Virus record (IMG/VR): IMGVR_UViG_3300029122_000292
Strand: one strand, 5' to 3'
Source of the DNA: a virus
DNA: 64,000 nucleotides
In this document: positions 7,046 to 51,651 of the stretch, piece by piece
How the letters are laid out: the number at the start of each line of letters is the position of its first letter
Position numbering within the stretch: position 1 is the first letter of the stretch
Position numbers and translations under genes: made by a program
Notes under the pieces: generated by a model
Databases searched by the model: none
Told to the model about the DNA's origin: nothing
What the model saw: the letters and a program-made list of their open reading frames with translations, nothing else

Positions 7046-7061
7046 CTATATCAATTCTCCT

Positions 7062-7412: not shown

Positions 7413-7414
7413 CC

Positions 7415-7591
7415 TTACTCTTCATCATCCCACTCGCGGCGTTGCTTGTGGGATTTTTTACTATATTTAGACGCCGGAGCTTCCTGCGCTTTTTCGATCT
7501 CCTGCATAAACTGGTTTTCAATCATGCGCTGTTTGCGGGCTGCTCTCATATATGTACTCTTAGAATTCTTATCTCGTTTGCGGTCACTCAT
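7415..7591 (-). CDS. small basic protein (about 58 aa)
   Basis: ORF 7415..7636 trimmed to the internal Met (MSDRKRDKNSK...) to avoid a 53-nt overlap. Confidence 0.4.
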   Translation of the reverse strand: MSDRKRDKNSKSTYMRAARKQRMIENQFMQEIEKAQEAPASKYSKKSHKQRREWDDEE

Positions 7592-7892
7592 CGCCGTAAT
7601 CCTCCTCACTGTCGTTATCGTATTCTTCCAACCCATATAGCTTATGATATAAATATCGGGTCAAAGAAGGGGACATAGGCGTATAGTCTTCCATCCAGAG
7701 CGTATCATACAGTGAAGCATCACCAATAACTTCCTGCCAGTCCGCGTATACTTGAATCGCGTCAATGATATTTTCTACTGTGACACTATAATTACGCACC
7801 GCATCAACTACGGCGAATCCAATATTAAAAATATCCTGTTTTGAAAATTCTTCTTCTTTCATAATAGTCCTCCTTATAGAAGCGATTTGCAC
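7584..7892 (-). CDS. hypothetical acidic protein (102 aa)
   Basis: ORF track. Confidence 0.5.
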   Translation of the reverse strand: MQIASIRRTIMKEEEFSKQDIFNIGFAVVDAVRNYSVTVENIIDAIQVYADWQEVIGDASLYDTLWMEDYTPMSPSLTRYLYHKLYGLEEYDNDSEEDYGDE

Positions 7893-8095
7893 CGAAGTGG
7901 CTTCTTTAGTTTATCTAATTGGTTGTAAATATCTGCGATTTGCTCTTCTATAGTTTTTATTCTATCCCATGCGGATTCTTCTACAGGTTGTTCTTTGGGT
8001 ATGACAATAGCTGAATTTTTTGCTAAATCGCTCGATATCCAATAACCATAAGGGTTCTCCGGATTTCCAATAAAATCTAAGTCAATAACATCCAT
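7874..8095 (-). CDS. small protein with C-terminal ...RCKSLL tail
   Basis: ORF track; AGGAG ribosome-binding site upstream; member of the CxSLL-tail set. Confidence 0.6.
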   Translation of the reverse strand: MDVIDLDFIGNPENPYGYWISSDLAKNSAIVIPKEQPVEESAWDRIKTIEEQIADIYNQLDKLKKPLRCKSLL

Positions 8096-8107
8096 TTGGC
8101 GTCTCCT

Positions 8108-8335
8108 TTACAGTAAACTGTGACATACAAATGATTTCTTTTTCTTTATTTCAATACTTACTTCAGGACACCGCTCACGAAAAAAATCATATATTGCTTT
8201 ATCTGAAATGCAATCAAGTCCAACTAACTGTCCATCCGAAATTAACAATTCATCATCATAAGACCTGATACTGTCTCCGCGAGCGACCGCATCTATCAGA
8301 AGTCTTGCTCCTTCTTCTGTCCATTCAATAATCAT
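8108..8335 (-). CDS. small protein with C-terminal ...VCHSLL tail
   Basis: ORF 8108..8350 trimmed to ATG 8335 (MIIEW...). That ATG overlaps the upstream TGA (ATGA) and is preceded by AGGAG encoded within the upstream tail codons. Confidence 0.6.
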   Translation of the reverse strand: MIIEWTEEGARLLIDAVARGDSIRSYDDELLISDGQLVGLDCISDKAIYDFFRERCPEVSIEIKKKKSFVCHSLL

Positions 8336-8544
8336 AAAAGGCTCCTGCAAATAAACGATTTCGAATTTCTAATCATATACACAATTTGATCGTATATTTC
8401 TTTATCGGTTCTTCCCCAAAATCCATAGTATTCAAAATCTGGTTTAATTTTGCTTTCATCTATATCAGGTGCAAATGGATAAAGCTTTTTATATTCTCTG
8501 ACGAAACCTTTAATCATATTGAGTTCATCAATCTCATCTCTCAT
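8332..8544 (-). CDS. small protein with C-terminal ...ICRSLL tail
   Basis: ORF track; tail codons TGC AGG AGC CTT TTA TGA carry the ribosome-binding site and start of the next gene. Confidence 0.6.
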   Translation of the reverse strand: MRDEIDELNMIKGFVREYKKLYPFAPDIDESKIKPDFEYYGFWGRTDKEIYDQIVYMIRNSKSFICRSLL

Positions 8545-21714: not shown

Positions 21715-22366
21715 GAATTTCCAGCAATTTTCTACATACATAATGCGAGTCCAGATGATATTATAAACGAAGTTTTCGCAGAGGGAACTCCGGTAGTGTG
21801 AAAACGCACCGCCGGGGTTTAATGCGGCTACTGGTTCTGCAGAACTGGTACTGGTCCCAAGCCCAGAAATGCAATCGCAAGTGGCGCACATAGCGTCATG
21901 ATCGAAGCGGTTGCACAAACAGAAGGGCGCTCCACCGCACTAGTGAAATTTGATTTGATTTTGAAGCAAAGGCCACGCTGATAAATCAATGATAAAAGTA
22001 AACTAGAGGGTGTTACTTGAAGTGAGCGAAACTAAACGAAAGGAGGGTTTATAGCTTGAATTGTAAAATCAGTTACCGCTCGCTAGGAGTGGTCTTTGGT
22101 GCAAGGGTCGCGTCTTACTCCAATGAGAAAATTTTCATGGGATGGCGATACAAACTGTTTTGACGTTTAACTGAAACTTCCAAATTAAATAGAATTGACG
22201 TTGCAAGTGCTCGTTGCATCCGAGCATAAGTTCGCATCATACATACGAGTTTAGCGGTAGTCGCAAATAGGCGTAATCGACCTATAAGGTTCGCTATAAT
22301 GCGGGGCTAGGTGATTCCCGAACGGACAAGTTAAACGTATGTTAAGGATAAGAAACCGGGCGACTG

Positions 22367-26584: not shown

Positions 26585-26847
26585 TCGCTTCCAGAATCAA
26601 TTCTTAGCCTGAAACGTCCTTATACGATAAGGGTTTCTCAGACATATAGTGATTCTGTAATGAAACTGCTATATCAGCACCAAATATGTGTCTACACCCC
26701 TTATTGCATAAGGGGGAAATGGCATAATATGAAACGAGGTGATATCGTGAAGGCATTCGATAACACATCTTAGGCGAATACACTCGTGGCAATCACCGCA
26801 AGACAGTTATCGTAAAACATCGAGATGAATACGTATTTCAGTTACGG

Positions 26848-26865
26848 CTGCCGGTTGACCGACAG
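26848..26865. promoter_or_regulatory. 18-bp imperfect palindrome CTGCCGGTTGACCGACAG (operator-like), copy A
   Basis: Half-sites CTGCCGG / CCGACAG (reverse complement CTGTCGG) separated by 4 nt; three copies in the window. Confidence 0.5.
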
Positions 26866-27289
26866 TTACGCAAAGGTAGGATGAGGTATCCCGGGGCGGA
26901 GGGGCCTGCTTTCAGCCTCTGAACGAGTCGACGGAGTCAGACCCAGAACCACTGAACGCCGAGCAAGGCGATTTGGTTGCAAAACGCCCGAAACTCAACA
27001 AAGTAGCTCATCAAAGTTCGACAGAAGCTCATCAATTGAACTCAATCAACGCGAGTTGAACGGGTACTGATCAACTTCGGGACCTTTTTAAGATCAATCT
27101 TGAGAGCTTAAAAGAGCAACAACATCATTTAGATCTCGATGAATAATAATGCATAAATATGCAGAAAGGACGAATAATATACAATGATTTATGCATAGCT
27201 AATTGAGGCGCTGCCTAACGCCTATTATAAATAAGGTAGTCGACAAAAATGACACAAAAAATATATTTAAGTTCTGTTTATAATGACAA

Positions 27290-27318
27290 TTGACGACACA
27301 GAGAAAATGTGTTATCAT
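27290..27318 (+). promoter_or_regulatory. sigma70-like promoter TTGACG-N17-TATCAT with TGn extension
   Basis: Read from sequence; 45 nt upstream of the Bro-N gene start. Confidence 0.5.
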
Positions 27319-27363
27319 CATTTCACAAACAGGACTTAAATATACATAAGGGAGGAAAAACAA

Positions 27364-28863
27364 GTGAATGAGAACGAAAACGTAGCGATGCAGCTGGCGA
27401 CCACAAGGAAGTTCGGCGAGCTTGAGATTCAGGTCTACGAGAATCCGGCGGTCGGTCACAGCAGGGTACAGGATGATTTCTGGATGACACGGGAGCAGAT
27501 TGGCACTGCATTGGAATACGATAAGCCGAATGAACGTATCGGCAAGATTCATCAACGTAACGCAGATCGTCTTGACCCACTTTCAACTTTGGTCAAAATG
27601 ACCAAGGTTGAAGGCAATAGAACGGTAAAACGTGAAATTATTTGTTACAATCTGCGTGGTGTTATGGAGATCTGCCGCTACAGCACCCAGCCTAAAGCGA
27701 ACGCCTTCATTGATTTCTGCTGGGATGTGATGGTCGCTCTGATGCAGGGCGAAACCGTATCTCTGGACAGAGGGAAGATGAGTGATGTAGAGTTGCGGCG
27801 ACAGGCACGCTTTGATGTTATGACTCAAGGCATTGAAGAACTTCGCCAGTCTCAGATTCAGCTTTGTTCTCAGATGGCCAAGATGGAAGAAAAGCGCCGG
27901 CAGGACAGGGAAGCTCTTGAGAATTTGATCCATTTCACAAAAGCAGACCTTGAGAAGGCAGAACGCATTGTGAGCAAGAACGACATCATTATCTCCACAA
28001 TTGAACAGATCAAGAAGCAGCTGGCAACGACTATCCAGCAGCCAACTTATCAGAATGGTTCTTATACTCCGCGTAAGACTTACATTCAGCCAGCAGAAAC
28101 TTCGTGGAAACATGACGTTAAGGAGATGGTGAGAAAAATCTCCCACATTGAGGGTGTGCCCCAAAAAGACATCTTTAACGGCATGTACAAAACCTTCGAG
28201 AAAGAGTTCGGATGGTCGGTATACGAAGAACGAAAGCTCTACGCGAAGAAAAAGGATATTTCGGATATTTATTCGATCCCGCTCATTGATATTGTGGAGA
28301 TGGCCAACGATAACATTCGGTCAAGTTTCTATTGCCGACTCAAGGATCGCTATGAGAACGATCTTTTTGATCCCGAGGAAGCAAAGAGGCAGCCGCATGT
28401 GAGCAAGCGAAATCCGCCGATGATCCCTGCCAGCATGATTCCTACACGGCATAAGTTTGAAGATTTTCCGAGTGTGTTGTCTCCTGAAAATCCGGGCGGC
28501 AATGATATCAAGGTTGTAGCAGAGGTTCAGGCAGTTGAAGTTGAAGCTCCAACGGTTGAAACGCCGGTGGCTGAAGCTCTGGTGGTCAAAGAACCGAAAA
28601 AGAAATACTACTACAAGCCGAGCATTACACTTCCGATCGTTGAACCCATTGCAAAAAAGCTGGGTGATAAGACGATTGGGTATTGGGTTACCTATGCAAA
28701 GATCTATGACACGATCGGCGTTGTCAAGATGGATCGTATGCGCAAGGCGTATGTACGTTCTCATAATAAGCCGCCCAAGGCTACTCCTGATATTTTCCAA
28801 CATTCTGATAAGAATATGAAAGTGTTTAAGGAAGCCGCAAAGATTGTGGCGGCAGCTATCTAA
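27364..28863 (+). CDS. Bro-N / KilA-C family antirepressor-like protein (499 aa)
   Basis: N-terminal Bro-N-like segment (FGELEIQVYEN...DFWMTREQIGTALEY...); GTG start after AGGGAGGAAAAACAA. Confidence 0.65.
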   Translation: MNENENVAMQLATTRKFGELEIQVYENPAVGHSRVQDDFWMTREQIGTALEYDKPNERIGKIHQRNADRLDPLSTLVKMTKVEGNRTVKREIICYNLRGVMEICRYSTQPKANAFIDFCWDVMVALMQGETVSLDRGKMSDVELRRQARFDVMTQGIEELRQSQIQLCSQMAKMEEKRRQDREALENLIHFTKADLEKAERIVSKNDIIISTIEQIKKQLATTIQQPTYQNGSYTPRKTYIQPAETSWKHDVKEMVRKISHIEGVPQKDIFNGMYKTFEKEFGWSVYEERKLYAKKKDISDIYSIPLIDIVEMANDNIRSSFYCRLKDRYENDLFDPEEAKRQPHVSKRNPPMIPASMIPTRHKFEDFPSVLSPENPGGNDIKVVAEVQAVEVEAPTVETPVAEALVVKEPKKKYYYKPSITLPIVEPIAKKLGDKTIGYWVTYAKIYDTIGVVKMDRMRKAYVRSHNKPPKATPDIFQHSDKNMKVFKEAAKIVAAAI

Positions 28864-29112
28864 GCTATCTACTTTCCTCCATTGTCCTTGGGACTGACAG
28901 CCGGGAAAGACCGGCATATATCCGGGTGTAGCGAAGCTGGTATCGCGCCAAATTTGGGATTTGGAGATTTCGCCCGTTCAAGTCGGGTCACTCGGACCAT
29001 GGTGCAGGGTCTTTCCTTTCTACCTGTGCCTATTGTGTGTATAAAACGGTTTCCATTAGACGAAACCGCGTGGCTGAAAATGCCGAGCAGGTACGATAAT
29101 CCTGCCTTATAT

Positions 29113-29499
29113 GGGCCCGAAAGGTTTTCGACAGGGCTATGAAAATTCACAATTCGCAGGTCGGCCATCACCTTACGAGGCAAAAAACAATAAACGCTAA
29201 CTACAATAGTTATCGCTGCGCGGCTTGATGCCGTGCCCAAAACAGCATCCTGATAGGCAGGTAAATGTTTGATGGTTCAAAGAATAAATCCCGGAACCCG
29301 ATGTAAACGGTAATAAACACCGGCGTTCTCGGACGCTAAAACCGAGTGGTGGAGTGATGTAACAAACCGTTACGTCCCTGGGTTTGCTGTGTTGGCGGCA
29401 TGAATTCCTTTCAAAAATTCTAAATGCTAACTATTGCGTAAGAAGATTGTGTACGAGTAATAGTTCTGGACGTGGGTTCGAATCCCACCGGGTCCACCA
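29113..29499 (+). ncRNA. ssrA: tmRNA (ssrA); putative tag peptide (A)NYNSYRCAA
   Basis: 5' GGGCCCG pairs with 3' CGGGTCC-A-CCA giving a G3-U70 wobble (AlaRS identity element); T-arm GGGTTCGAATCCC; internal reading frame starting GCT and ending GCG GCT TGA. Confidence 0.75.
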
Positions 29500-34616: not shown

Positions 34617-34874
34617 GTGAAGGTTTATGTTCTTTATGACTGTGTCGAAAATCCAGACGAGTGGGCGTTTGCTGGTGTTGAACACATTTATGCGAATCAT
34701 GCAGACGCGGTAGATCGGATGCAGGATTTGTTCTTAGAGTGTTTGAACGAACACGACATAAATAATGCAGAAAGTATGCGAGATAGCTATATTGACGATT
34801 GGGGAGCGCGTGTCGCGGACGTTCCGGCTGGTTATCGTCACACATGGACAATTACAGAGGAGACAGTTGTATGA
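34617..34874 (+). CDS. hypothetical protein (85 aa)
   Basis: ORF track. Confidence 0.45.
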   Translation: MKVYVLYDCVENPDEWAFAGVEHIYANHADAVDRMQDLFLECLNEHDINNAESMRDSYIDDWGARVADVPAGYRHTWTITEETVV

Positions 34875-35095
34875 AATACGATTTACATGTTGGGCAATTA
34901 GTTAGAATCGGCAATGAAGTGTCTGAAAACGATATGAATCGCAACAAAAGAGGGCGCATCGTAAGATTTGATAAAGATTACCCAGTTGTAGAGATGTTAG
35001 ACCCATTTACAAGTGGAGAAACAACGATTACTTGGTGCCCGCAGAGATTTTGGGAGCCGTGTCCAACAAAACTTACTTGCAAATCACTTCTGTGA
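34872..35095 (+). CDS. 74-aa SH3/KOW-like small protein with C-terminal ...TCKSLL tail
   Basis: ORF 34799..35095 trimmed to MKYDLHVGQLVRI. Paralog of 41540, 42637, 42926 and 45562. Confidence 0.55.
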
Positions 35096-37753: not shown

Positions 37754-38636
37754 TATCACGGAGCAGGTTGTAGCAGATATGGCACGTGAATTTGTTCAGG
37801 AGCTGTATAAGACCGGTAGGGTTAAGACGGATTCTTTCTCATACAAGAAGAATTTTGCGTCTGTTAAAAAGGATGCTGTCGAGGTGAATTTCACCTATGA
37901 AGCGTATTCTCAGATGTTTGCGTTGATTGATCACTTCGATTGTGAGGTTGCATGGCGCGGCATTGTGAATCGTATCGATAAGACGCATTTTCAGATTACC
38001 AAGATTCTGCTGTATCCTCAGACTGTGACTGGTACCACAGTGGACACCGATCAGGAAGAATTTTCAAAGTGGTTTCAGGCGCTGCCTGTTGAAACGATTC
38101 GCAACCTGAGATTTCAGGGACACAGCCATGTCGATTTCGGTGTAACGCCGAGCAGTCGCGATATGGAGGATCAGTGGCGATTCATTGACGGACTCAAGCC
38201 GACGAGTTATCAGATTTTTATGATTTGGAACAAGAAGCGTCAGTATAACGTTCGCGTCATTGATCTGGCCGACAATGTCATCTATGAGGGAGCCGATGTC
38301 AAGGTTACTGTTGGAGATTTTGACTCGACTCGATTTCTCGAGGATGCAGACAAAACGGTTCGAAAGCGCCCTGTATATGTCGCAAGCACAGTCGCAAATT
38401 ACGGAGCTTATGGAGCAGGCACCTATTATGGTAAAGCAGTTACGCCGCAAAAAACGTACCCGCAAACAGTTACCACGCAAACGCCAGTGCCGCAAATCAA
38501 GACGGTAACTGGCGCAGCGGCTCCGAAAGTCAAGGAAGTGTCTGAGACTCGATATCCATTGGTCAATCATTACAAGGAGAATCCAGAAGATCTTGATACG
38601 TGCTGGAATTCCAGCTGTTTTCCGTATGACAATTAA
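37740..38636 (+). CDS. JAMM/MPN+ family metallopeptidase (298 aa)
   Basis: Canonical JAMM motif HSHVDFGVTPSSRD (HxHx7Sx2D) with upstream Glu. Confidence 0.65.
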   Translation: MKPINITEQVVADMAREFVQELYKTGRVKTDSFSYKKNFASVKKDAVEVNFTYEAYSQMFALIDHFDCEVAWRGIVNRIDKTHFQITKILLYPQTVTGTTVDTDQEEFSKWFQALPVETIRNLRFQGHSHVDFGVTPSSRDMEDQWRFIDGLKPTSYQIFMIWNKKRQYNVRVIDLADNVIYEGADVKVTVGDFDSTRFLEDADKTVRKRPVYVASTVANYGAYGAGTYYGKAVTPQKTYPQTVTTQTPVPQIKTVTGAAAPKVKEVSETRYPLVNHYKENPEDLDTCWNSSCFPYDN

Positions 38637-38651
38637 AGAAAGGACTACAAA

Positions 38652-39326
38652 ATGAATCTGAGTAAGCTTGAAATGGTATTCAACCCCGATGATATCAGCG
38701 GCCAGATCCACATTATTGGTTGTGGTTCGGTTGGCTCTACTGTGGCGGAACTTCTTGCACGGTATGGTCTGAAGAATTTCACGCTGTGGGATATGGACGA
38801 GGTTGAAAGCAAGAATATCGTCAACCAGATGTTCTTCGCCAACAATATTGAAGCTCCAAAGGTCGAGGCGGTTCGCGATATTATCTGTGCCATCAATCCT
38901 GATGCCAAAGATGAAATTGTTCTGAAGCCGAATGGTTGGCAGGGTGAGATGATTCGCGGTTATGTATTCCTCGCGGTCGACAATATCGAAATTCGCAAGC
39001 AATTCATGGAGGCGAACAAGTACAATCCGAATATCAAGGGTGTGTTTGATGTCCGCACCGGGTTCCATGATGCACAGTGCTGGGCAGCAGATTGGAGTAA
39101 GGAAAAAGACCGAGAGAATTTATGGAACTCTATGAATTTCTCTCATGAAGATGCACAGGCTGGCACTCCGGTTTCTGCATGTGGCATCGTTCAAGGTCTC
39201 GCCCCGACTGTTCGTTTCGTGTGTTGTTTGGCGGTTACGAACTTTATCAATTTCGCGACTAATATCGCACCTTTGAAGAAAATGATCGTTGCAAATCCGT
39301 ACACTTTTAACGTTACGGCTGCATAA
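38652..39326 (+). CDS. ThiF/MoeB-family E1-like adenylyltransferase (224 aa)
   Basis: Rossmann motif IIGCGSVGSTVAELLARYGL followed by LWDMDEVESKNIVNQ, as in the E1/MoeB/ThiF nucleotide-binding site. Confidence 0.65.
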   Translation: MNLSKLEMVFNPDDISGQIHIIGCGSVGSTVAELLARYGLKNFTLWDMDEVESKNIVNQMFFANNIEAPKVEAVRDIICAINPDAKDEIVLKPNGWQGEMIRGYVFLAVDNIEIRKQFMEANKYNPNIKGVFDVRTGFHDAQCWAADWSKEKDRENLWNSMNFSHEDAQAGTPVSACGIVQGLAPTVRFVCCLAVTNFINFATNIAPLKKMIVANPYTFNVTAA

Positions 39327-39375
39327 AGAATAAATAAAAAAAAATCGTGATGAATTACTGTTGAAATATACAGTC

Positions 39376-39393
39376 CTGCCGGATGACCGACAG
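39376..39393. promoter_or_regulatory. 18-bp imperfect palindrome CTGCCGGATGACCGACAG, copy B, at the head of the 290-nt leader upstream of the RT
   Basis: Identical at 18/18 to copy C and 17/18 to copy A. Confidence 0.5.
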
Positions 39394-39620
39394 GTTCGTA
39401 AAGGTAAGATCATATACATCCCACCGGGAAACCGAGGCGTGTGATCGCATGCGATGTACGTCGGCTCCGCAGGTATGCTGATTCGCTGATCGAAATAATC
39501 AACGTAGACACGTGCCGGCAATGAGCTCAAAACGCAAACCCGCAGGAAGACGTCCCGTCGAAGGCACCTCCCTGAGCATACAAACCACCATTTAGATCAC
39601 GATTTAGAAGAGGTAAACAT
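39394..39620 (+). ncRNA. candidate structured ncRNA / RT-associated RNA in the non-coding region upstream of the RT
   Basis: About 230 nt with no ORF; contains the perfect 12-nt palindrome ATCGCATGCGAT and several GC hairpins. Identity as msr/msd-like RNA is inference only. Confidence 0.3.
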
Positions 39621-40856
39621 ATGTACGTTACTTATTGGAATCCGCCGAGAACAAGGCAGATTACGTTTGATGAAATCCTTAGTGGAGTCGTTGACGTGAA
39701 CCAGTTGAAATATGCTGGCGATGAAACTTCTACTCGAACTGTACAGCGTAATGGGTTGAATGATCGTCTCGTAGCAATTACAAACGTTACCAATATGATT
39801 GCACGGCTCGCGGAATTCAATCAGAAATACGCTCGTCTTGAAGCAGTACGTGACCTGTCGACGTATTACTATCACTTTGAAATTCCCAAGAAGACTGGTG
39901 GCGTTCGTCCAATTGATGCACCGAACAATGAACTGAGCGATGCGTTGGTTGAGTTGCGGACGCTGTTAAAAAGTTTCATGATTGCTGATTATCACACGGC
40001 AGCACACGCATATATCAATGGGCGCGGCACTCTGAGTGCAATTAAAAAGCATCAGGCGGGACACAGATATACAGTAAAAGATCGTGAGACTGGGAAAGAA
40101 AAGATCGTCACCTATGAAAACAACTGGGCTGTCAAGTTTGACTTTCATGGATTCTTCCCGAGCTCCACTCCTGAGTTTATCTACAGTATGTTCAGAAAGA
40201 TTTATCCGTTTTCTCTCATTATGAAGGATCGAAATGGATACAATCAGCTGACTAAAGCGATGCGCCTGTGCTTCTTGAACGGCGGTCTTCCGCAGGGAAC
40301 GCCAATCAGTCCGTGGATCACGAACGTTATGATGATCCCGTTTGATTATATGTTAAACAAGAAGCTTTCTTACAAATATACCATGAAAGACGGCATTTCT
40401 CGCACTTTTACATACACCAGATATGCAGACGATATCACCATCAGCTGCTATTTGAGTTTTGACCCGATGGAAATGCAGGATATTATCAAAGAGACGTTGG
40501 ACGCAATCAATGCTCCGTTTACTTTGAATGAAGAAAAAACGCATTATGGTAATCGGCATTCGAGCGAAAACTGGATGCTCGGTCTGATGTGGAACGCCAA
40601 TAACGATATCACAGTCGGATGGCGCAATTTTAAGGACTTCAAGAAGATGGCATCTAATTACATCATCTGCAAGAAAGAAGGGAAAACGTGGGACCTTGAA
40701 GACTTGCAGCAGTTTAATGGCAGGCTGAATTACTACCGTATGGTAGAAAAAGAATCGGTTGACACGGTGATTTCTCGGTACAACGAAAAGTATCGTGTTG
40801 ATATGATGGCAATGCTCAAAGCTGACTTAAAACCAAAAGAAGGAGTTGTTTTCTAA
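39621..40856 (+). CDS. reverse transcriptase, retron/group-II-like clade (411 aa)
   Basis: RT motifs IPKKTGGVRPI, FDFHGFFPS, GLPQGTPISP, YTRYADDITIS; N-terminal similarity to retron RTs. Confidence 0.85.
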   Translation: MYVTYWNPPRTRQITFDEILSGVVDVNQLKYAGDETSTRTVQRNGLNDRLVAITNVTNMIARLAEFNQKYARLEAVRDLSTYYYHFEIPKKTGGVRPIDAPNNELSDALVELRTLLKSFMIADYHTAAHAYINGRGTLSAIKKHQAGHRYTVKDRETGKEKIVTYENNWAVKFDFHGFFPSSTPEFIYSMFRKIYPFSLIMKDRNGYNQLTKAMRLCFLNGGLPQGTPISPWITNVMMIPFDYMLNKKLSYKYTMKDGISRTFTYTRYADDITISCYLSFDPMEMQDIIKETLDAINAPFTLNEEKTHYGNRHSSENWMLGLMWNANNDITVGWRNFKDFKKMASNYIICKKEGKTWDLEDLQQFNGRLNYYRMVEKESVDTVISRYNEKYRVDMMAMLKADLKPKEGVVF

Positions 40857-41194
40857 TGATTGAAATGATGTGTAGAGATGGCGGCACTCCAGTTGAATTG
40901 CTCGATCAAGCGGCAAGTGTCGTAGAGGAATCCATTGGGTGTCCAGTTGACCTGTTGGATATCGACGACCACAGAGCAATGGTCTATTGGGGGCCGTCTG
41001 ATGTTGCAAGCGCAATCAAGGAGCTTGGCATCAAAGAAATCGATGCAGAGGATATGAGCTTATGTGCAGATCTCTTGTGCGATTTTGAAGTGAATATTCA
41101 TCAGGCAATGCTTGAGGCCGGACACGACGCTCTACAGAGCTGTTTGGAATGTCTTGTTGATGAACTGCGAAAACAGGACAAAGAATCCAAGTAA
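40856..41194 (+). CDS. small acidic protein translationally coupled to the RT (112 aa)
   Basis: ATGA overlap with RT stop. Confidence 0.55.
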   Translation: MIEMMCRDGGTPVELLDQAASVVEESIGCPVDLLDIDDHRAMVYWGPSDVASAIKELGIKEIDAEDMSLCADLLCDFEVNIHQAMLEAGHDALQSCLECLVDELRKQDKESK

Positions 41195-41241
41195 TTATAT
41201 ATTGTAATCTCTTTTGAATATCGGGCGTTTTACGTCGCGAG

Positions 41242-41259
41242 CTGCCGGATGACCGACAG
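41242..41259. promoter_or_regulatory. 18-bp imperfect palindrome CTGCCGGATGACCGACAG, copy C
   Basis: Followed by about 280 nt of hairpin-rich non-coding sequence (for example GCTGCCTGAGTTGGCAGC). Confidence 0.5.
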
Positions 41260-41539
41260 TTATGAAGAATACCATAGCACGCTCATACGGGCTCCATGGG
41301 CTGCCTGAGTTGGCAGCCTCGCCCTCCTGAGCTATGGATCAAATTAGTTCGCAAGCACGGAGTCTCCGTTCTGCAGCCTAGATCCCAGCAGAGCTGGAGA
41401 TCGCGGCTGCAATCGCTGCGACTCATTGGCCATCAGAACATTTACTCGACAATGCTTCCGGGATCAAAGATCCCTCCAAATTATCTCGCAAATGTTCTTC
41501 CAGCCAACTGTTACTCACAATTTAGAAAAGAGATTGATT

Positions 41540-41803
41540 ATGGATTACAAATATAAAATTGGACAAAAAGTACGAATTCGGAAAGACTTGACAGCTGGTG
41601 CAGAATATCCAATGCAGAGCGGAGAAAGCTATGGTTGCAATCCGGGAGTTAATGAAGATATGGAAAGATACCGTGGTCAACTTATGACAATCGATCGCCA
41701 AACATACGGTGTTTATACGCTCTGTGAGGACAACGAATATTGGAGTTGGACTGACACGATGTTTGAGTCTCCAAAACCACTTACATGTAAAAGTCTTTTG
41801 TAA
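41540..41803 (+). CDS. 87-aa SH3/KOW-like small protein with C-terminal ...TCKSLL tail
   Basis: ORF 41426..41803 trimmed to MDYKYKIGQKVRIRKDL. Confidence 0.55.
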   Translation: MDYKYKIGQKVRIRKDLTAGAEYPMQSGESYGCNPGVNEDMERYRGQLMTIDRQTYGVYTLCEDNEYWSWTDTMFESPKPLTCKSLL

Positions 41804-41817
41804 AGGAGTGAATTTTA

Positions 41818-42633
41818 ATGGCAGAAACCGCAAAGAAAGTGGCACAAAAAACCATTCTTTTCCCAGTTGAAGATCAGCCTGCAAAACTCGTCGTTACAGA
41901 GGACGATATTGAACGAATTATTCAGCAGGCAGTTAAAAGTGCCACTGCAACGAAAAAAGCACGGAAACCTCGTCGGACGGACAGTCTTTATCTCAAGGAT
42001 GGGCGTAGAAAGCCAACCCCGGCAGATCCTATCAAGTCAAAGGAAGATTTTAAGAAAATTGTTGATTATCTTGGATCAAATGGCACTGAAGAAATTGCGC
42101 TCAGGAACAAAACACTATTCATTCTCGGCTGTTCAATTGGTGTTCGATGCGGCGATTTGTTGAAGCTTAAAACGGCTGATGTTTATTATGAGAACGCTCA
42201 TGTAAAAGATCATGTTGAGCTGATCGAACAGAAGACCGGCAAGCGAAACGTGTGTAAGATTTCTCATATGGCAAAAGAAGCTTTAAGAGAATATTATCAG
42301 GCAATTAGTTTTCGAATTGACCGCGACACGCTTCTTTTTCAGAGCAAGAAAGGTGGACAGCTTAACGTTAGATCAGTGAGCAACCTTTTGAAGAAGGCTG
42401 GTAAGGCGTGTGGTTTGAATATTGAGTTATCTACTCACACTATGCGTAAAACTTATGCTATGGCCGCGTTACAGAGTGCAGAAGGTACAGTTGATGAAGC
42501 GAACATCGTGAGTATTCTGCAAAACAAATTTAACCACAGTAATCAGCGTATTACGATGAGATATATCAAAATGGATCAAGAAAAACTTGATGAAGTCTCT
42601 GAGAATGTTTCCGACTGGTTTGAAGGAGAATAA
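41818..42633 (+). CDS. tyrosine recombinase / phage-integrase-family catalytic domain protein (271 aa)
   Basis: Arg I (GVRCGDLLKL), HxxR (THTMRKTYA) and catalytic Tyr (ITMRYIKMD). Confidence 0.7.
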   Translation: MAETAKKVAQKTILFPVEDQPAKLVVTEDDIERIIQQAVKSATATKKARKPRRTDSLYLKDGRRKPTPADPIKSKEDFKKIVDYLGSNGTEEIALRNKTLFILGCSIGVRCGDLLKLKTADVYYENAHVKDHVELIEQKTGKRNVCKISHMAKEALREYYQAISFRIDRDTLLFQSKKGGQLNVRSVSNLLKKAGKACGLNIELSTHTMRKTYAMAALQSAEGTVDEANIVSILQNKFNHSNQRITMRYIKMDQEKLDEVSENVSDWFEGE

Positions 42634-42636
42634 GCT

Positions 42637-42909
42637 ATGAATTATAGATTTAAACCCGGTGACAAAGTGACCGTTAGAAAAGATTTGGCGACATATGAAA
42701 CGTATCATATGTTATCTGGAGAAACCCCATGTGATGCCATTATTGCTACTTATTCTATGGAAAATCTTCGAGGGAAACAAGTCACAATCGAGAACTATGA
42801 TTGTTGTGGGAGTGCAATGTGTTACAGGGTAAAAGAAAGCTCCAGATATTGGGCAGATGAAATGTTTGAAGAGTCTAAAAAGCCGTTTACGTGTAAAAGT
42901 CTATTATGA
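42637..42909 (+). CDS. 90-aa SH3/KOW-like small protein with C-terminal ...TCKSLL tail
   Basis: ORF track; KPGDKVTVRKDL...WADEMFE. Confidence 0.6.
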   Translation: MNYRFKPGDKVTVRKDLATYETYHMLSGETPCDAIIATYSMENLRGKQVTIENYDCCGSAMCYRVKESSRYWADEMFEESKKPFTCKSLL

Positions 42910-42925: not shown

Positions 42926-43210
42926 GTGTCGAAAAGCAAGTACAAATATAAGAATGGAGAAGCAATTCGCGTCAGGGAAGATCTTCAATCTGGAACAGTT
43001 TATTACATGAGATCTGGTCCAGAACCGGATGCCAATGGTATTGAGACGTCATGGAGTGGACGTGGACAAGTAGGTTATCGTGGACAAATTGTACATATTT
43101 CTCACAAAGCAAACGGTCGATACAAAATTCTTGAAGACGGAAAAACATATTATTATACGGATGAAATGTTCGATCGTCCAAAGAACTTGATTTGCAAAAG
43201 TTTGTTGTGA
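42926..43210 (+). CDS. 94-aa small protein with C-terminal ...ICKSLL tail
   Basis: ORF track; GTG start after AGAGG. Confidence 0.55.
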   Translation: MSKSKYKYKNGEAIRVREDLQSGTVYYMRSGPEPDANGIETSWSGRGQVGYRGQIVHISHKANGRYKILEDGKTYYYTDEMFDRPKNLICKSLL

Positions 43211-43489: not shown

Positions 43490-45562
43490 ATGTCTGATTT
43501 CAAGAAATTTCGTGCACTGCTGCAGAACCACTTCAATGAGATGGTGAAGGGTGAGAATCCACTGTTTATCACCGATGCAGACGAGGATGAACTGTACAAT
43601 CTGTATCTTGATAGTTTCCCGGCCGGCACAAATGAGCTGTTCCGTAAGCGGCGCGAGTATGACTGTTCCTGCTGCCGCCGTTTTGTGAAGAATATCGGCA
43701 AGCTGGTGGCGTTTGACAAGAATTATAATTTGATTTCCATCTGGGATTTCGATGCAAAGTCTGCCAAGTATCAGCCTGTTGTTGATACGCTGGCTGCCTA
43801 TGTAAAGAGCCGCGCCATTGTGAATCCGTACTTTGTCAGTCGCAATATGATCGGTTCTGGGAATATGTTCGGCACCGAGATGAACTACGAGTATGATGAA
43901 AACCACAATGATGTATATACTTGGGATCATTTCGCAGTCAAGATTCCGCAGCGTTTTATTACCAGTGGAGATGACGTGGCTACCAAGATGGCACAGTGGC
44001 GTGACTCCGCAAACGTGTTCAAGCGTTCTCTGGAAGAGCTAACCATGGAGGCTGTTGATACTGTGCTGGAGCTGATTGCTCAGAATAGTCTGTATCGCGG
44101 CAAGGAGTTTGAGCGATCTGTAAAGGAGTTTAAGCACGATAAGATTGACTATGACAAACTGTCTGTTAATGAAAAGCTTGCCTTTGTATGGCTTGCCCCT
44201 ACGTATGCTACGGCGGCGCAGCTTCGTATTCGTAACACCGCTATCGGCACCCTTCTTATCAATTTGAGCGAAGGTATGAACGTGGATGCAGCCGTTACTG
44301 CCTTCGAGAAAGTTGTTGCTCCCGCAAACTATAAGCGTCCCAAGGCGATTTTCACCAAGAAGATGTTGGAAGATGCACAGAAGACTGTCACCGAGCTGGG
44401 CTATATGAGCAGTCTGGGTCGTCGGTTTGCTACTCTGGATGATATCACCGCCAACAATATCTTGTTCTGCAACCGTGATGCTGCTTCTCGTATTGCTGGT
44501 GCTACAAATCCGTTTGAAGCAATGGCTAAGACTGTTGCGATTGATCCCAAGAAGTTTAACCGTGCAGAAGAAATTGGCATCGACAAGTTTATCAAAGACG
44601 TGCTGCCGACTGCAACTGGTTTGGAACTGTTCATGGAAAATCGTTTCGAGAAGAATATGATGTCTCTGATTGCACCGCAGGATAAGACTGCGCCGAGCAT
44701 GTTCAAGTGGCCGAATGGTTTCAGCTGGGCATATACCGGTAATGTGACTGACAGTCAGATCCGCGAGAACGTCAAGAACGCTGGTGGCAAAGTCGATGGC
44801 GTGCTGCGTTTCTCTATTCAGTGGAACGATAAGCCGGGTGAATGGGATGAAAACGATCTCGATGCCCACTGTGTTGAACCGAATGGCTTTGAGATCTATT
44901 ACGGCGACAAACGAGATTTGCGTACCGGTGGTAATCTGGACGTGGATATCATTCATCCTAATTGTAATAAGGCGGCTGTTGAGAACATCACTTGGTCTGA
45001 CATCAAGAAGATGAAGGATGGCGAGTATAACTTTTCTGTTCATTGCTTCTCTAACCGTGGCGGCAAAACCGGCTTCCGCGCAGAGATTGAATTTGATGGT
45101 CAAATCTACTCCTTTAATTATAATATTCCGCTGCGTCAGACTCAGATTGTTTCTGTTGCTACTGTTGTGTTGAAGGATGGGCAGTTTACTATTAAGGAAC
45201 ATCTCAATAGTTCTACTTCTTCCCGTGAGATCTGGGGTGTGAATTCCAATCAGTTCGTACCTGTGTCTGTGGCGATGTACTCTCCGAACTACTGGGATGA
45301 GCAGACTGGCAATGGCAACCGTCACTACTTCTTCATGCTCAAGGATTGCGTCAACCCTGAAAAGCCCAATGGTTTCTACAACGAATTCCTGAAGGCGGAA
45401 CTGCTACAGCATAAGCGTGTGTTCGAGGCTCTCGGTTCTCAGATGGCGGTTCAATCGGTGGATGACCAGCTGTCTGGTGTTGGCTTCTCTGAGACGAAGC
45501 ACGACTCCCTCATTGTCAAGGTGCAAGGCGCTACTGAGCGAGTTCTGAAAGTGGTGATTTAA
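43490..45562 (+). CDS. hypothetical protein (690 aa), GC3-rich
   Basis: ORF track; AAGGAGAATAATAACAATG; no recognisable motifs. Confidence 0.7.
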   Translation: MSDFKKFRALLQNHFNEMVKGENPLFITDADEDELYNLYLDSFPAGTNELFRKRREYDCSCCRRFVKNIGKLVAFDKNYNLISIWDFDAKSAKYQPVVDTLAAYVKSRAIVNPYFVSRNMIGSGNMFGTEMNYEYDENHNDVYTWDHFAVKIPQRFITSGDDVATKMAQWRDSANVFKRSLEELTMEAVDTVLELIAQNSLYRGKEFERSVKEFKHDKIDYDKLSVNEKLAFVWLAPTYATAAQLRIRNTAIGTLLINLSEGMNVDAAVTAFEKVVAPANYKRPKAIFTKKMLEDAQKTVTELGYMSSLGRRFATLDDITANNILFCNRDAASRIAGATNPFEAMAKTVAIDPKKFNRAEEIGIDKFIKDVLPTATGLELFMENRFEKNMMSLIAPQDKTAPSMFKWPNGFSWAYTGNVTDSQIRENVKNAGGKVDGVLRFSIQWNDKPGEWDENDLDAHCVEPNGFEIYYGDKRDLRTGGNLDVDIIHPNCNKAAVENITWSDIKKMKDGEYNFSVHCFSNRGGKTGFRAEIEFDGQIYSFNYNIPLRQTQIVSVATVVLKDGQFTIKEHLNSSTSSREIWGVNSNQFVPVSVAMYSPNYWDEQTGNGNRHYFFMLKDCVNPEKPNGFYNEFLKAELLQHKRVFEALGSQMAVQSVDDQLSGVGFSETKHDSLIVKVQGATERVLKVVI

Positions 45563-47370: not shown

Positions 47371-48198
47371 ATGGTCAAAGCAAATTATTATGAAATCAGT
47401 TCTTTCCCTGATGGCACTCCGCTGATTAAGAAGGATAAAGCTATCAATTATCTCAATGCGATCAATATCGTTTGGACGTTTGAATCCATGGCAGAGCTCC
47501 CCACAGTCATTATGATCGCAAAGGACGCAAAGGATAACGGGGCAGAAGTCGAGCTGTTTATGCCGTATATTCCGAACGCTCGTATGGATCGCGTTCATAG
47601 TGACGAGGATGTGTTTACTCTCAAGTGGTTCGCAGAGGAGATCAATCGATGTGGGTTCAGCTGCGTCAACGTGTTCGATCCCCACAGTGATGTGGCTCCC
47701 GCATTGATCAATCGTTGCGAGGTACATACTCCGATTCGTGAAATCTGTCAGGCAATCGAGGAAAGCAAGCCTGATGTGGTCTATTTCCCAGATGCCGGCG
47801 CAATGAAACGGTACGAAGGAACTGTTCACTGGGCACTCGATCGTGTCGGTTGTAAGGCTTATATCATTCACGGAGACAAGAAGCGTGACTGGAAGACCGG
47901 AAAGATTCTCGGCTTGGATGTCACCGGTTATCCTCCAAAGGGTGGCAAGGTTCTGATGATTGACGATATTTGTTCTTACGGTGGCACTATGTTCTATTCG
48001 GCCAAGAAGCTGAAGGAACTGGGTGCTGGTGATATCGATATGTATATCAGCCACTGCGAGAACAGTATTCTGGATTCTGAGCGCGGCCATCTGTTTGATA
48101 ACCCGGATCTGATTCATATGGTCTATACCACGGACAGTATCTTCACTGGCCATCACGACAAGGTCACTGTATTAGAGCATCATTGGGATGAGGACTGA
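47371..48198 (+). CDS. prs: ribose-phosphate pyrophosphokinase (PRPP synthetase) family; either Prs or the Prs-like ADPR-PP synthetase (Adps) of phage NAD+ reconstitution pathways
   Basis: Type-I PRTase/PRPP-binding loop KVLMIDDICSYGGTM; size and layout of Prs. Confidence 0.7.
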   Translation: MVKANYYEISSFPDGTPLIKKDKAINYLNAINIVWTFESMAELPTVIMIAKDAKDNGAEVELFMPYIPNARMDRVHSDEDVFTLKWFAEEINRCGFSCVNVFDPHSDVAPALINRCEVHTPIREICQAIEESKPDVVYFPDAGAMKRYEGTVHWALDRVGCKAYIIHGDKKRDWKTGKILGLDVTGYPPKGGKVLMIDDICSYGGTMFYSAKKLKELGAGDIDMYISHCENSILDSERGHLFDNPDLIHMVYTTDSIFTGHHDKVTVLEHHWDED

Positions 48199-48695: not shown

Positions 48696-50174
48696 ATGAT
48701 CAACATTAACCCAATGCTGCTGTGCGATTTCTATAAAACAACGCACAGTAAGCAGTTCCCGGCTGGCACTACTAAGCTGGTTAGTTATTTCACTCCGCGC
48801 ATGAGCCGTCTGGATGGCGTGGATGAAGTCGTTGTGTTTGGTGTTCAGGCGTTCTGCAAGAATTATCTGCAGAATTATTTTAAACGTTGGTTTTTTGATT
48901 TCCCAAAGGAGTGGGTTGTCTCAAATTATCAGCGTGTCCTGGACGCAACCATTGGCAAGGACGCTTATGATATCGATAAGATTGCTGCCCTGCATGACCT
49001 GGGCTATCTTCCTGTCGAGATCAAGGCGCTGCCAGAAGGCACTCGTTGCCCCATCCATGTGCCGTTCCTTGAGATGAGCAATACACATCCTGATTTCGCA
49101 TGGGTTCCGCAGTTCCTCGAATCTTTTATGAGTTCTGAGCTGTGGCATCCGATGATTTCTGCAACGGTCGGAACTCTGTATCGCGATATCGTGGACAAGT
49201 ATTACGATGAAACCGTGGATGATGGCGTACCGCATGCTCGTGCTCTAGGCGATTTCAGTTTCCGTGGTCAGGAGTGTATGCAGTCGGCAGTTAAGTCAAG
49301 CGCCGGTTGGTGTCTGAGTTTTCTGAATACGGCTACTGTCCCTGCGATTCCGTATCTGGAAGAAATGTATCGCTGCAATTGTGAAGAAGAGCCTGTTGCG
49401 TTTGGCGCTGTTAGCACCGAGCATAGTGTGATGTGTTCTAACTTCGCTGTCGATGGTGACGAGATTACTTTCATCCGCCGGGCACTGACTGAGCTGTATC
49501 CCAATATGAGCTTCAGCATGGTATCTGATTCCTACGACTATTGGAATCTAGTCGATAATATCCTGCCGCAGCTCAAGGATGAAATTATGGCGCACAACGG
49601 TACGATGCTGATTCGTGGCGACTCTGGTGATCCGGTCGAAATCGTCACGCAGACCGTCTATCATCTGTGGAATATCTTCGGTGGCACGGTCAACAGCAAG
49701 GGTTATAAGGTGCTCGACCCTCATGTAAAGGCTCTGTATGGCGATTCCATCACTGTGCAGCGCTGTGAAAAGATTTATGCCGAACTCAAAGCACATGGTT
49801 TCGCCTGCAACAATGTCAGTCTTGGCGTTGGTTCGTTCTCCATGCAGTGCATCGAGCAGAATGGTCAGTTGAAGCCGTTTACTCGCGATACTTTTGGCAT
49901 GGCAGTTAAGGCAACTTATGGCGTTGTCAATGGCAAGGAGATTCAGATCTTCAAAGATCCCAAGACTGATACCGACCACTTCAAGAAGAGTCTGAAGGGC
50001 ATGTGTTATGTCACTAAGGATGATTCTGGAAAGCTGGTTTGTACTGATGGTCTGATGGATCATGCTGCTCATTCGGATGGCAATCTGTTGCAGCCCGTAT
50101 TCCGTAATGGCGTGATGGTCAAGGAATACAGTTTGAAGGAAGTTCGCGACCGGCTGTGGGAAGGAAAGTTCTAA
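48696..50174 (+). CDS. nadV: nicotinamide phosphoribosyltransferase family (NadV/NAMPT, or the NAMPT-like Namat)
   Basis: Extensive similarity to NAMPT: LLCDFYKTTHSKQFP, VSDSYDYWN, IRGDSGDP, NSKGYKVLDPHVKALYGDSI. Confidence 0.8.
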   Translation: MININPMLLCDFYKTTHSKQFPAGTTKLVSYFTPRMSRLDGVDEVVVFGVQAFCKNYLQNYFKRWFFDFPKEWVVSNYQRVLDATIGKDAYDIDKIAALHDLGYLPVEIKALPEGTRCPIHVPFLEMSNTHPDFAWVPQFLESFMSSELWHPMISATVGTLYRDIVDKYYDETVDDGVPHARALGDFSFRGQECMQSAVKSSAGWCLSFLNTATVPAIPYLEEMYRCNCEEEPVAFGAVSTEHSVMCSNFAVDGDEITFIRRALTELYPNMSFSMVSDSYDYWNLVDNILPQLKDEIMAHNGTMLIRGDSGDPVEIVTQTVYHLWNIFGGTVNSKGYKVLDPHVKALYGDSITVQRCEKIYAELKAHGFACNNVSLGVGSFSMQCIEQNGQLKPFTRDTFGMAVKATYGVVNGKEIQIFKDPKTDTDHFKKSLKGMCYVTKDDSGKLVCTDGLMDHAAHSDGNLLQPVFRNGVMVKEYSLKEVRDRLWEGKF

Positions 50175-50886: not shown

Positions 50887-51651
50887 ATGCGTAAGTATGA
50901 ATTTGATGCAGCAAAGACAAAGGATGAAATCATTACGTGGATTCGGAATTATTTCCGAAAGAATGGCCCTGATTGCAATGCTGTGATTGGTATTTCTGGC
51001 GGCAAGGATTCAAGTATCGTCGCTGCTCTGTGCTGCGAGGCGCTTGGCAATGGCCGCGTGATCGGAGTTCTGATGCCGCAGGGTGTACAGGAAGATATCG
51101 ATGTGGCGCGGGAACTGGTTGCTCATCTAGGGATCAAGTCCTTCGAGATCAATATCGCCGAGACTGTGAATACGCTGTTAGCCAATGGACGGGCAGCGGG
51201 GCTGTGTGATTCAAAGCAGGCTCGTGTAAATCTGCCGGCACGAATCCGTATGGCAACCCTGTTCATGGTGTCTCAGAGTACGAATGGGCGAGTGGCTAAC
51301 ACTTGCAACGCTTCAGAAAATTTCGTCGGGTGGCAAACTGTGGGAGGGGATGGATTTGGCCAGTTCAGTCCTCTTAGTAAGCTGACTGTTACTGAGGTAA
51401 AATCCGTTGGTCGTGAGTTGGGTCTTCCTGAAAAGTTCATCGAGAAAGCACCTGCAGATGGGCTGACTGGCAAAACCGATGAAGATAATTTCGGGTTTAC
51501 TTATGAATTCCTTGACAAATATATCCGCACTGGTGAGTTTGGTGGCGATACCGCAACTGCAGCTAAGATCGATCGGATGCATGAGGCGAATTTGTTTAAG
51601 GATTTGCCGATGCCTACGTATGACCCATCCTTGTTTAATTGGTGGGGCTAA
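50887..51651 (+). CDS. nadE: NH3-dependent NAD+ synthetase
   Basis: PP-loop GISGGKDSS and overall NadE-like layout. Confidence 0.75.
   Translation: MRKYEFDAAKTKDEIITWIRNYFRKNGPDCNAVIGISGGKDSSIVAALCCEALGNGRVIGVLMPQGVQEDIDVARELVAHLGIKSFEINIAETVNTLLANGRAAGLCDSKQARVNLPARIRMATLFMVSQSTNGRVANTCNASENFVGWQTVGGDGFGQFSPLSKLTVTEVKSVGRELGLPEKFIEKAPADGLTGKTDEDNFGFTYEFLDKYIRTGEFGGDTATAAKIDRMHEANLFKDLPMPTYDPSLFNWWG

Follow-up and report, generated by a model that had tools for sequence, protein, structure and literature searches.

We analyzed a 64,000-nucleotide (nt) stretch of viral DNA (IMG/VR record IMGVR_UViG_3300029122_000292; hereafter the window) that carries a gene for a retron-type reverse transcriptase (RT). 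The leader directly upstream of the RT gene is one member of a family of structured RNA units with the layout of retron non-coding RNAs (ncRNAs), three of which lie in the window. The leader is itself preceded by genes for a ubiquitin-like (Ubl) protein, an E2-like protein, a JAB metallopeptidase and an E1 enzyme (Table 1). We favor the explanation, with a probability of about 0.5, that each unit would serve as a self-priming template from which the RT makes one RT-DNA species per unit.

Classification of the reverse transcriptase

The four RT motifs listed in an earlier analysis of the DNA letters, here called the sequence-only reading (IPKKTGGVRPI, FDFHGFFPS, GLPQGTPISP and YTRYADDITIS), are all present in the product of the RT gene, which matches Pfam RVT_1 at 1.5e-13. 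That reading grouped the enzyme with the retron/group-II/Abi-type RTs and not with those of diversity-generating retroelements (DGRs), an assignment borne out by the QG..SP sequence and by the best matches, which are retron RTs. It had also proposed a comparison with the profiles of retrons and defense-associated RTs (DRTs), in which retron models came out best in PADLOC, NCBIfam and the Protein Data Bank (PDB). In PADLOC the top 25 models were all retron RT models, with RT_II-A first (2.1e-37), followed by III-A, XII, XIII, I-A and others. The best NCBIfam match was retron_St85_RT (3.5e-43, 148 bits), ahead of retron_Ec67 (4.3e-25), the group II maturase (4.6e-16), Drt2 (2.7e-10) and Drt3a (3.6e-6). 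When a profile of the RT family was compared with PDB sequences, Ec83 ranked first (1.5e-27), and Ec78, a St85-family RT, Ec67 and Ec86 followed. The solved retron RTs matched at 1.5e-27 to ~4e-15, a group II intron RT at ~1e-10 and the DRTs at 1e-5 or worse (Drt2 at 4e-5). Membership in the DRT2 or DRT3 family was rejected on the NCBIfam scores of 40 bits for Drt2 (cutoff 390) and 26.6 bits for Drt3a (cutoff 200).

The catalytic YTRYADD and the LPQG.P.SP sequence, both as in Ec86, are invariant among 18 homologues with 46-71% identity to the RT. The protein carries an N-terminal extension of ~85 residues. Judged by these profile and PDB matches, we class the enzyme as retron-type and assign it to no individual retron type. 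Note that one related locus, L007, has a second RT gene (448 residues, 7000-8346) ~1.8 kb downstream of the first.

The leader as one unit of a repeated RNA family

The sequence-only reading described the region upstream of the RT as a leader devoid of open reading frames (ORFs). Indeed, the 294 nt at 39327-39620 hold no + strand ORF of at least 40 residues, and the lone ORF found there is a mechanical one on the - strand (39120..39530). The same reading took the leader for an msr/msd-like or other template ncRNA. Comparative evidence upholds a structured RNA with a retron-like layout; it is not a single element, being one of three paralogous units in the window, which we call A, B (the leader) and C. 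The a1/a2-like inverted repeats and the conserved G that the reading suggested looking for were both found in unit B. The palindromes and GC hairpins it had cited as signs of structure turned out to lie in the hypervariable interior, outside the conserved part; the palindrome ATCGCATGCGAT at 39444-39455 is not kept even in phages with a 97% identical RT.

The units share an 18-nt direct repeat, CTGCCGGATGACCGACAG, which is perfect between 39376 (unit B) and 41242 (unit C) and recurs with one mismatch at 26848 (unit A), giving three matches in the window versus 0.02 expected. The repeat is part of the second of two hairpins, hp1 and hp2, in a common layout. Each unit starts with a 5' strand of at least 8 nt, followed by an unpaired G, NAU, hp1 and hp2. 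A short purine-rich single-stranded motif leads into 150-250 nt of unrelated interior, and the unit ends with (A/G)G and the exact complement of the 5' strand. In the family as a whole the terminal helix measures 8-14 bp and the units about 210-500 nt, with a median of 288 nt. Units A, B and C are all on the + strand, and their closing helices differ in sequence, each being complementary.

In unit B, the 5' helix strand (39344-39351) is followed by the unpaired G (39352), hp1 (39357-39374) and hp2 (39375-39394), and AG (39594-39595) precedes the 3' helix strand (39596-39603), the closing helix being ATCGTGAT/ATCACGAT. The RT start codon lies 17 nt past this strand, a placement as in retron ncRNAs. 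Unit A is located 12.5 kb upstream of the RT and ~220 nt before a gene for a 499-residue Bro-N/Ant-like protein; it is closed by ATCGAGAT/ATCTCGAT, a G following the 5' strand and AG preceding the 3' strand. Unit C lies directly after the small acidic ORF downstream of the RT and directly before an ORF of 87 residues and a tyrosine recombinase gene. It is closed by TCTCTTTT/AAAAGAGA, again with G and AG at the junction, and folds well relative to shuffled sequences (z = -5.01). A weak sigma-70-like promoter match (9/12) is present just before unit C, at 41175-41203 (+). Across 35.5-42.8 kb, promoter- and terminator-like sites were no commoner than in shuffled sequences.

Units A, B and C had no match in Rfam 15, either at E <= 5 (38500-42500 and 26600-27400) or in a scan of the whole window at the gathering thresholds. 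By these searches the RNA family is absent from Rfam 15, and the covariation described below is strong enough to define the family now.

Comparative evidence for the RNA units

Relatives of the RT were collected from public assemblies, IMG/VR and GTDB genomes, every locus being found via its RT. IMG/VR contributed 540 confirmed RT relatives, of which 79 loci were kept, on contigs mostly of 70-150 kb. From GTDB, 70 loci were obtained, all on contigs of metagenome-assembled genomes (MAGs) that are of phage size, mostly binned as Clostridia and derived from animal and human guts.

A covariance model, R1, was restricted to the 5' domain (5' strand, G, hp1, hp2 and flank) and built on 28 sequences, none of which included the 3' strand or came from the closest lineage of the window (the group with at least 96% RT identity and L002). 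With filters off and both strands of the window searched, the two best matches were units B and A at the predicted coordinates, although with weak scores (18.2 bits, E = 0.16, and 15.8 bits, E = 0.51, respectively). Unit C did not reach E <= 1 with R1. We count it as a member because its hp2 is identical to that of unit B, its architecture is the same, its closest counterpart, the downstream unit of L002 (L002d), matches it by nhmmer at 1e-18, and the downstream (d-type) units of clades with 61-66% RT identity score 42-49 bits with R1.

In the related loci, R1 gave 208 matches at E <= 1 (153 + 55) in 108 loci. All of them are on the strand of the RT and none on the opposite strand. R1 matched 64 of the 70 loci from MAGs, which have 1-6 copies each in the 6 kb to either side of the RT. 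In these loci, 48 matches start 222-384 nt before the RT start and 37 start 6-83 nt after the RT end, and ~20 spacings of 255-371 nt between neighboring matches correspond to complete units arranged back to back as arrays. Orthologous units precede the RT in essentially all loci.

Both hairpins are supported by covariation. Among 106 distinct natural sequences, compensatory changes were seen at 14 of the 15 hp1/hp2 pairs (528 cells). The cells were 95.5% paired, versus 65% after shuffling and 36-46% after sliding, in an alignment that was fitted to R1 and so leans towards structure. The terminal helix was analyzed in a non-circular manner, starting from 5'-domain matches and seeking a helix partner 150-560 nt downstream. 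A helix of at least 8 bp ending just before the conserved G was found for 92 of 111 matches (median 10 bp), compared with 15 of 111 when the downstream sequence was shuffled (median 6 bp). Position 9 of R1 is an unpaired G right after the 5' helix strand in 109 of 112 matches, and the base before the 3' helix strand is G in 95 of 101 cases, with AG in 72. Within arrays each unit has a helix sequence of its own, and orthologous units keep theirs across phages.

In a constructed alignment of the helix strands and hp2, compensatory changes occurred at 16 of 17 pairs, including all 8 helix pairs; this count is descriptive, as the sequences had been selected for pairing. MAFFT combined with RNAalifold on whole units recovered the terminal helix alone, since the interiors do not align. 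A descriptor scan for a perfect helix with G and AG yielded ~5 chance matches per 64 kb, and a two-hairpin filter proved too lax, at ~1 false match per locus; the matches of both were treated as leads only. Note that hp2 is common to the units of one phage in the window and in L002, L005 and L007, and is not shared in the 65% clade. The idea that sharing of hp2 within a phage proves a common binding protein fails in that clade and was dropped.

The placement of the units bears on whether they are templates at all. They might instead be stable or regulatory RNAs, acting as leaders or as processing modules that are cut out of polycistronic transcripts by way of their terminal helices and control expression of the genes behind them, or as scaffolds of ribonucleoproteins (RNPs) to which the RT or another phage protein merely binds. 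A distance of 10-30 nt separates the end of each unit from a start codon or the next unit, what follows being the RT, the 87-residue ORF with the recombinase, the tRNAs of L007 or other genes in L006; unit A is 12.5 kb away from the RT; and an unusual transcription signal is conceivable in a phage with a putative YonO/RdRP-fold RNA polymerase of its own. The weak conservation of the interiors, detailed below, also agrees with such a role. However, there are only 3 units in 64 kb, two of which flank the RT, and units cluster at the RT in 64 of the 70 distant loci. At RT identities as low as 36% the RT and the units are still tightly linked even as the genes downstream differ, with a catalytically intact RT kept throughout, and the invariant unpaired G at the helix end has no obvious role in a leader. 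We regard this main rival explanation as unlikely. In L007, two tRNA-like sequences, judged from fold output, directly follow the downstream RNA unit (~5670-5830).

Unit interiors

Between clades, the interiors share no alignable sequence and no consensus fold. Interiors of orthologous units have an identity of 0.5-0.65 at an RT gene identity of 0.70-0.75, near the baseline of 0.45-0.56 for paralogues. When phages sharing at least 96% RT identity are compared, the unit B interior (39400-39590) has a diversity of 0.21-0.25, as against 0.02-0.05 in most 50-nt windows of the flanking genes (0.09-0.12 in a few) and 0.019 in the 5' handle. In the comparison with loci L011-L018, this interior was 5-10 times more diverse than the flanking genes and showed two allele types, with clustered substitutions that keep a small hairpin. 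Its diversity may reflect two recombining alleles and weak constraint, rather than hypermutation. As possible guides against other phages, the interiors were compared with 50,697 phage records and gave no match at E <= 1 within this phage-only set.

RNA elements on both sides of an RT, together with a group II RT as the second-best class in profile searches, could point to a group II intron remnant or a DGR. Yet the elements on the two sides are paralogous, and each is closed by a helix of its own. The sequence-only reading had named group II intron domains as evidence that would speak against it. None was found in Rfam, at E <= 5 around the RT and unit A or at the gathering threshold in the whole window, and the maturase model TIGR04416 scored 59 bits against a cutoff of 300; a group II intron was rejected on these grounds. 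For a DGR, a second copy or imperfect variable repeat (VR) of the unit interiors would be expected; none is present in the 64-kb window, and the RT has QG..SP and no DGR signature, so that this class was rejected as well. Either origin is very improbable.

The interiors also bear on a third possibility, that the RT copies the units by a route other than that of retrons. It might produce concatemers as in DRT2, by rolling-circle synthesis or template jumping, or homopolymers or protein-primed products as in DRT9 and AbiK, in which case the terminal helix would not present a branching G and would serve to join the template ends. DRT2 ncRNAs reportedly follow the same logic, a closing helix bringing the ends of the template together. 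Some antisense interior frames are almost free of stops: 84 of 86 codons in unit B, 85 of 86 in the upstream unit L002u and 82 of 83 in L060u. However, open frames of this neo-like kind are inconsistent across units and were rejected as a shared feature, the unit lengths are not bound to one phase, and the RT is far from the DRT families by the scores given above. The RT family disfavors synthesis by such a route, which we consider improbable.

Units as candidate self-priming templates

Self-priming of the retron type is favored because the terminal helix and the invariant unpaired G mirror the a1/a2 repeats and the branching G of retrons. The stem-loops after the G, the variable region that follows, the position of the RT start and the retron-type RT together correspond to the msr-msd layout. 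By analogy with retrons, the units would be excised or folded out of the operon transcript, and the hp1/hp2 handle would be bound by the RT. The terminal helix would set the 2'-OH of the G beside the 3' end of the interior, as it does in retrons, and reverse transcription of part of the interior would give branched RT-DNA, with a separate species from each unit. Where classical retrons carry their effector, this locus has the Ubl cassette.

Several observations weigh against this explanation. The RT scores below the curated cutoff of every named retron family (148 bits versus 235 for retron_St85). Retron RTs are marked by NAXXH in region X and VTG in region Y, in which H and G are the most conserved residues (PMC7736814). 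In the phage enzyme, region X reads RS..DA.KKHQ or, across the family, (D/S)A.xKH, with a gap of three residues between A and H where NAXXH has two, and region Y reads N.ITVG or ITIG, not VTG; the H and G themselves (H144 and G333) are invariant among the 18 homologues. Unit B folded alone is not significant (z = -1.31). This single-sequence fold neither supports nor refutes a structure, for which the evidence comes from comparison of related units. The interiors are multi-branched or poorly structured, with no single long msd hairpin of the kind typical of retrons. Units also directly precede genes other than the RT, namely those for the recombinase, the Bro-N-like protein and tRNAs, which a leader or processing role would fit. 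The link to the cassette is syntenic only, and in four loci the RT lacks a cassette within a distance of 6 kb. Finally, we know of no natural retron described with several ncRNAs per RT or with arrays of them.

An upstream Ubl/E2-like/JAB/E1 cassette

The sequence-only reading regarded the small acidic ORF after the RT as its partner. The conserved neighbors are, instead, the four genes of the upstream cassette, whose order and orientation are kept from 99% to 36% RT identity. The conserved C-terminus of the Ubl protein is ..ADNA, with ..ADGA in some loci and ..AYGG in one (L115). The JAB protein contains the JAMM motif HSHVDFGVTPSSRD (HxHx7Sx2D), read from the sequence, and the PADLOC JAB model matches its residues 127-167 with E = 0.0034; the position of its gene between the E2-like and E1 genes is conserved. 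The E1 is also matched by PADLOC E1-E2 models (down to 1.6e-15) and by NCBIfam ThiF (1.4e-18). In L008 and L009, a PIN/MazE toxin-antitoxin pair is inserted between the E2-like and JAB genes (1345-2012 in L008).

Of 129 loci with enough flank, 124 have E1 and JAB genes upstream of the RT; at <50% RT identity the proportion is 66 of 71. Across the 129 loci, all of them collected via the RT, the identities of RT and E1 correlate with r = 0.96. The four cassette-less loci all have R1 units beside the RT, with a complete unit directly upstream of it in L124 and L126. Because units are kept at the RT where the cassette is missing, the link between RT and RNA is tighter than that between RT and cassette. 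We infer from this synteny that a pathway of ubiquitin-like conjugation is probably coupled to the RT/RNA module. We found no description in the literature of a retron-type RT linked to a Ubl/E2/JAB/E1 cassette. Among cultured phages there were no relatives, only distant ThiF genes in Xanthomonas and Erwinia jumbo phages.

A more far-reaching reading, which we put forward tentatively and consider rather less than evenly probable, is that the locus represents a new class of phage RT system, in which an array of RNA units and a retron-type RT yield a repertoire of RT-DNAs or RNPs coupled to Ubl conjugation. Either the RT/RT-DNA complex or the targets of this complex could receive the Ubl protein, or RT-DNA could act as a gate on conjugation, and the fast-evolving interiors would supply specificity in an arms race.

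In line with the defense or exclusion role proposed by the sequence-only reading, the cassette could also serve defense or superinfection exclusion by a temperate phage, with the RT and RNA as sensor and Bil-like Ubl conjugation as effector. A tyrosine or serine recombinase lies just downstream in several clades, as is typical of the lysogeny and moron regions of temperate phages, and 6-10 kb downstream of the RT there are genes for NAD (nicotinamide adenine dinucleotide) salvage, a kind of gene described in phages as counter-defense. Both retrons and E1-E2-JAB systems of the Bil and CBASS (cyclic oligonucleotide-based antiphage signaling system) type are known to act against phages (PMC7736814; PMC10557695). 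On the other hand, the module has co-diverged with the phage backbone, as the correlation and the conserved gene order described above indicate, unlike mobile cargo. PADLOC gave no system-level match beyond individual domains, and all matches in the genome collection are MAG contigs of phage size. A defensive role is plausible, though less than evenly probable. By sequence comparison, co-divergence with the backbone would fit a stable phage function or counter-defense equally well as exclusion by a prophage. The system may act in exclusion by the lysogen, in counter-defense or in a step of the phage's own cycle.

Comparison with known systems

As known so far, natural retrons consist of one RT, one ncRNA and an effector, and the diversity of their ncRNAs underlies genome-editing tools. 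With Ec86, Ec83, Ec78 and St85 the phage system has in common an RT that matches retron profiles and structures best and carries YxYADD and LPQG.P.SP; an ncRNA that directly precedes the RT in the same orientation, with a1/a2-like inverted repeats as its boundaries; a conserved unpaired G at the 3' end of the 5' repeat, the candidate branch site, followed by stem-loops and a variable template-like region; and conserved accessory genes in the same operon. In contrast to these retrons, its RT lies below the family cutoffs, with altered NAXXH and VTG sequences and the N-terminal extension. Two to six RNA units accompany each RT, often in tandem and on both of its sides, with interiors of 150-250 nt that lack a single long hairpin. 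The carrier is a phage lineage of ~145 kb, and the accessory genes form the Ubl/E2-like/JAB/E1 cassette. No such cassette was found among the effector classes of PMC7736814, a paper in which the terms 'ThiF' and 'JAB' are absent.

In the BilABCD system, the JAB enzyme trims the tail of the Ubl protein (PMC10557695). As in BilABCD, the genes for Ubl, E2, JAB and E1 occur together here and in the same order. Unlike in BilABCD and type II CBASS (Cap2/Cap3), the conserved part of the Ubl protein ends in ..DNA, so that the exposed residue would be Ala, not Gly. Further differences from both systems are the E2-like protein, whose 505 residues include a coiled coil and two UBC/RWD-like domains; the E1, which at 224 residues is an adenylation domain only, without a catalytic Cys domain; the attached RT and ncRNA array; and the location of the cassette on a phage.

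DRT2 and other defense RTs with an ncRNA template likewise have one RT gene after a structured ncRNA of ~250-300 nt whose ends are joined by a helix. In contrast to DRT2, the phage RT belongs to another family, there is no conserved open template frame and several units are present. Several ncRNA units served by one RT are also the principle of engineered 'retron arrays' (PMC10370050), which are synthetic constructs. The whole arrangement of RT, RNA array and Ubl operon matches no known retron, DRT or Bil system.

The searchable literature contained no natural multi-unit ncRNA array around a retron-type RT. Priority for the arrays is uncertain given a preprint of September 2026 (10.64898/2026.09.22.753630), the accessible part of which contains the terms 'ncRNA array' and 'reverse transcriptase' and not 'ubiquitin' or 'ThiF', so that overlap is possible. 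Over 540 IMG/VR contigs and dozens of contigs from gut MAGs belong to the lineage that carries this combination of RT, RNA units and Ubl operon. Should the units be templates, the lineage would represent a natural multiplexed retron and a new source of RTs and ncRNA scaffolds. A functional coupling to the Ubl pathway would join reverse transcription and ubiquitin-like conjugation, two major branches of prokaryotic conflict systems so far studied separately.

Table 1. Features of the RT locus and its surroundings in the window.
Feature	Position	Strand	Basis and remarks
ncRNA unit A	26819..27140	+	hp2 18-mer with one mismatch; R1 match
Ubiquitin-like (beta-grasp) protein, 79 residues	35853..36092	+	C-terminal ..K.DNA, then short variable tail (TGMN here)
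E2-like protein, 505 residues	36236..37753	+	UBC/RWD fold domains, long coiled coil, invariant Cys169 (AASCLP..PW)
JAB/JAMM metallopeptidase, 298 residues	37740..38636	+	JAMM motif; PADLOC JAB
ThiF/MoeB-type E1, adenylation domain only, 224 residues	38652..39326	+	Pfam ThiF, 7.4e-21
ncRNA unit B (RT leader)	39344..39603	+	Closing helix, hp1/hp2; best R1 match in the window
Retron-type reverse transcriptase, 411 residues	39621..40856	+	Motifs, profile and PDB matches
Small acidic ORF, 112 residues, one clade only	40856..41194	+	No family matches
ncRNA unit C	41208..41533	+	hp2 18-mer identical to unit B; same architecture
87-residue protein ending ..TCKSLL, system membership uncertain	41540..41803	+	phrog_7488, 4e-10
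Xer-like tyrosine recombinase, 271 residues	41818..42633	+	Pfam Phage_integrase, 2.4e-17; phrog_216, 8e-47

Downstream genes and phage context

The small ORF that follows the RT is indeed acidic (26 D+E versus 8 K+R), and its start overlaps the RT stop codon in an ATGA, as the sequence-only reading had noted. It does not, however, qualify as a general partner of the RT, the coupling being lineage-specific. Of 159 related loci, 67 have the ORF, and these all belong to the clade whose RT identity is 60% or higher; the ATGA overlap occurs in 11 of the 67, the others having gaps of 12-33 nt or more.

The integrase, the ..CKSLL proteins and the gene for a DUF8224 protein are likewise largely confined to this clade. 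The tyrosine recombinase adjoins the RT only there, and distant loci have a serine resolvase or other genes in its place. The window encodes four phrog_7488 paralogues on the + strand (34799-35095, 41540-41803, 42637-42909 and 42926-43210), all ending in ..(T/I)CKSLL. Relatives are also encoded close to the RT in distant loci; in L111 and L150 they lie between the genes for E1 and RT, and L126 has several copies. The DUF8224/phrog_1735 protein (690 residues, 43490-45562, +) is 79-92% identical where the RT is 62-71% identical, far above its neighbors.

That the locus is carried by a phage, as proposed earlier, agrees with the relatives, which comprise contigs of 70-150 kb in IMG/VR and a record in GenBank labeled 'Bacteriophage sp.', and with neighboring genes that match PHROG families. 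The window further contains a transfer-messenger RNA (tmRNA) at 29113-29499 (+; Rfam 96 bits, tag peptide ANYNSYRCAA) and eight to ten tRNAs (eight by ARAGORN and nine by Rfam, with one unique to each tool), at 28922, 29863, 32554, 32760, 32996, 33184, 33567, 62746 and 63868. A type-P5 twister ribozyme was detected at 21777-21866 (+), with 47.1 bits against an Rfam gathering threshold of 37.6.

A protein of 848 residues (4496-7045, -) matches Pfam RdRP PF05183 at 2.8e-14 and phrog_8308, which suggests a phage two-barrel RNA polymerase of the YonO/crAss-like type. The NAD-salvage genes form a cluster on the + strand that encodes a phosphoribosyl pyrophosphate (PRPP) synthetase (47371-48198), NAMPT (48696-50174) and NAD synthetase (50887-51651), and that looks like an NAD-regeneration (counter-defense) pathway.

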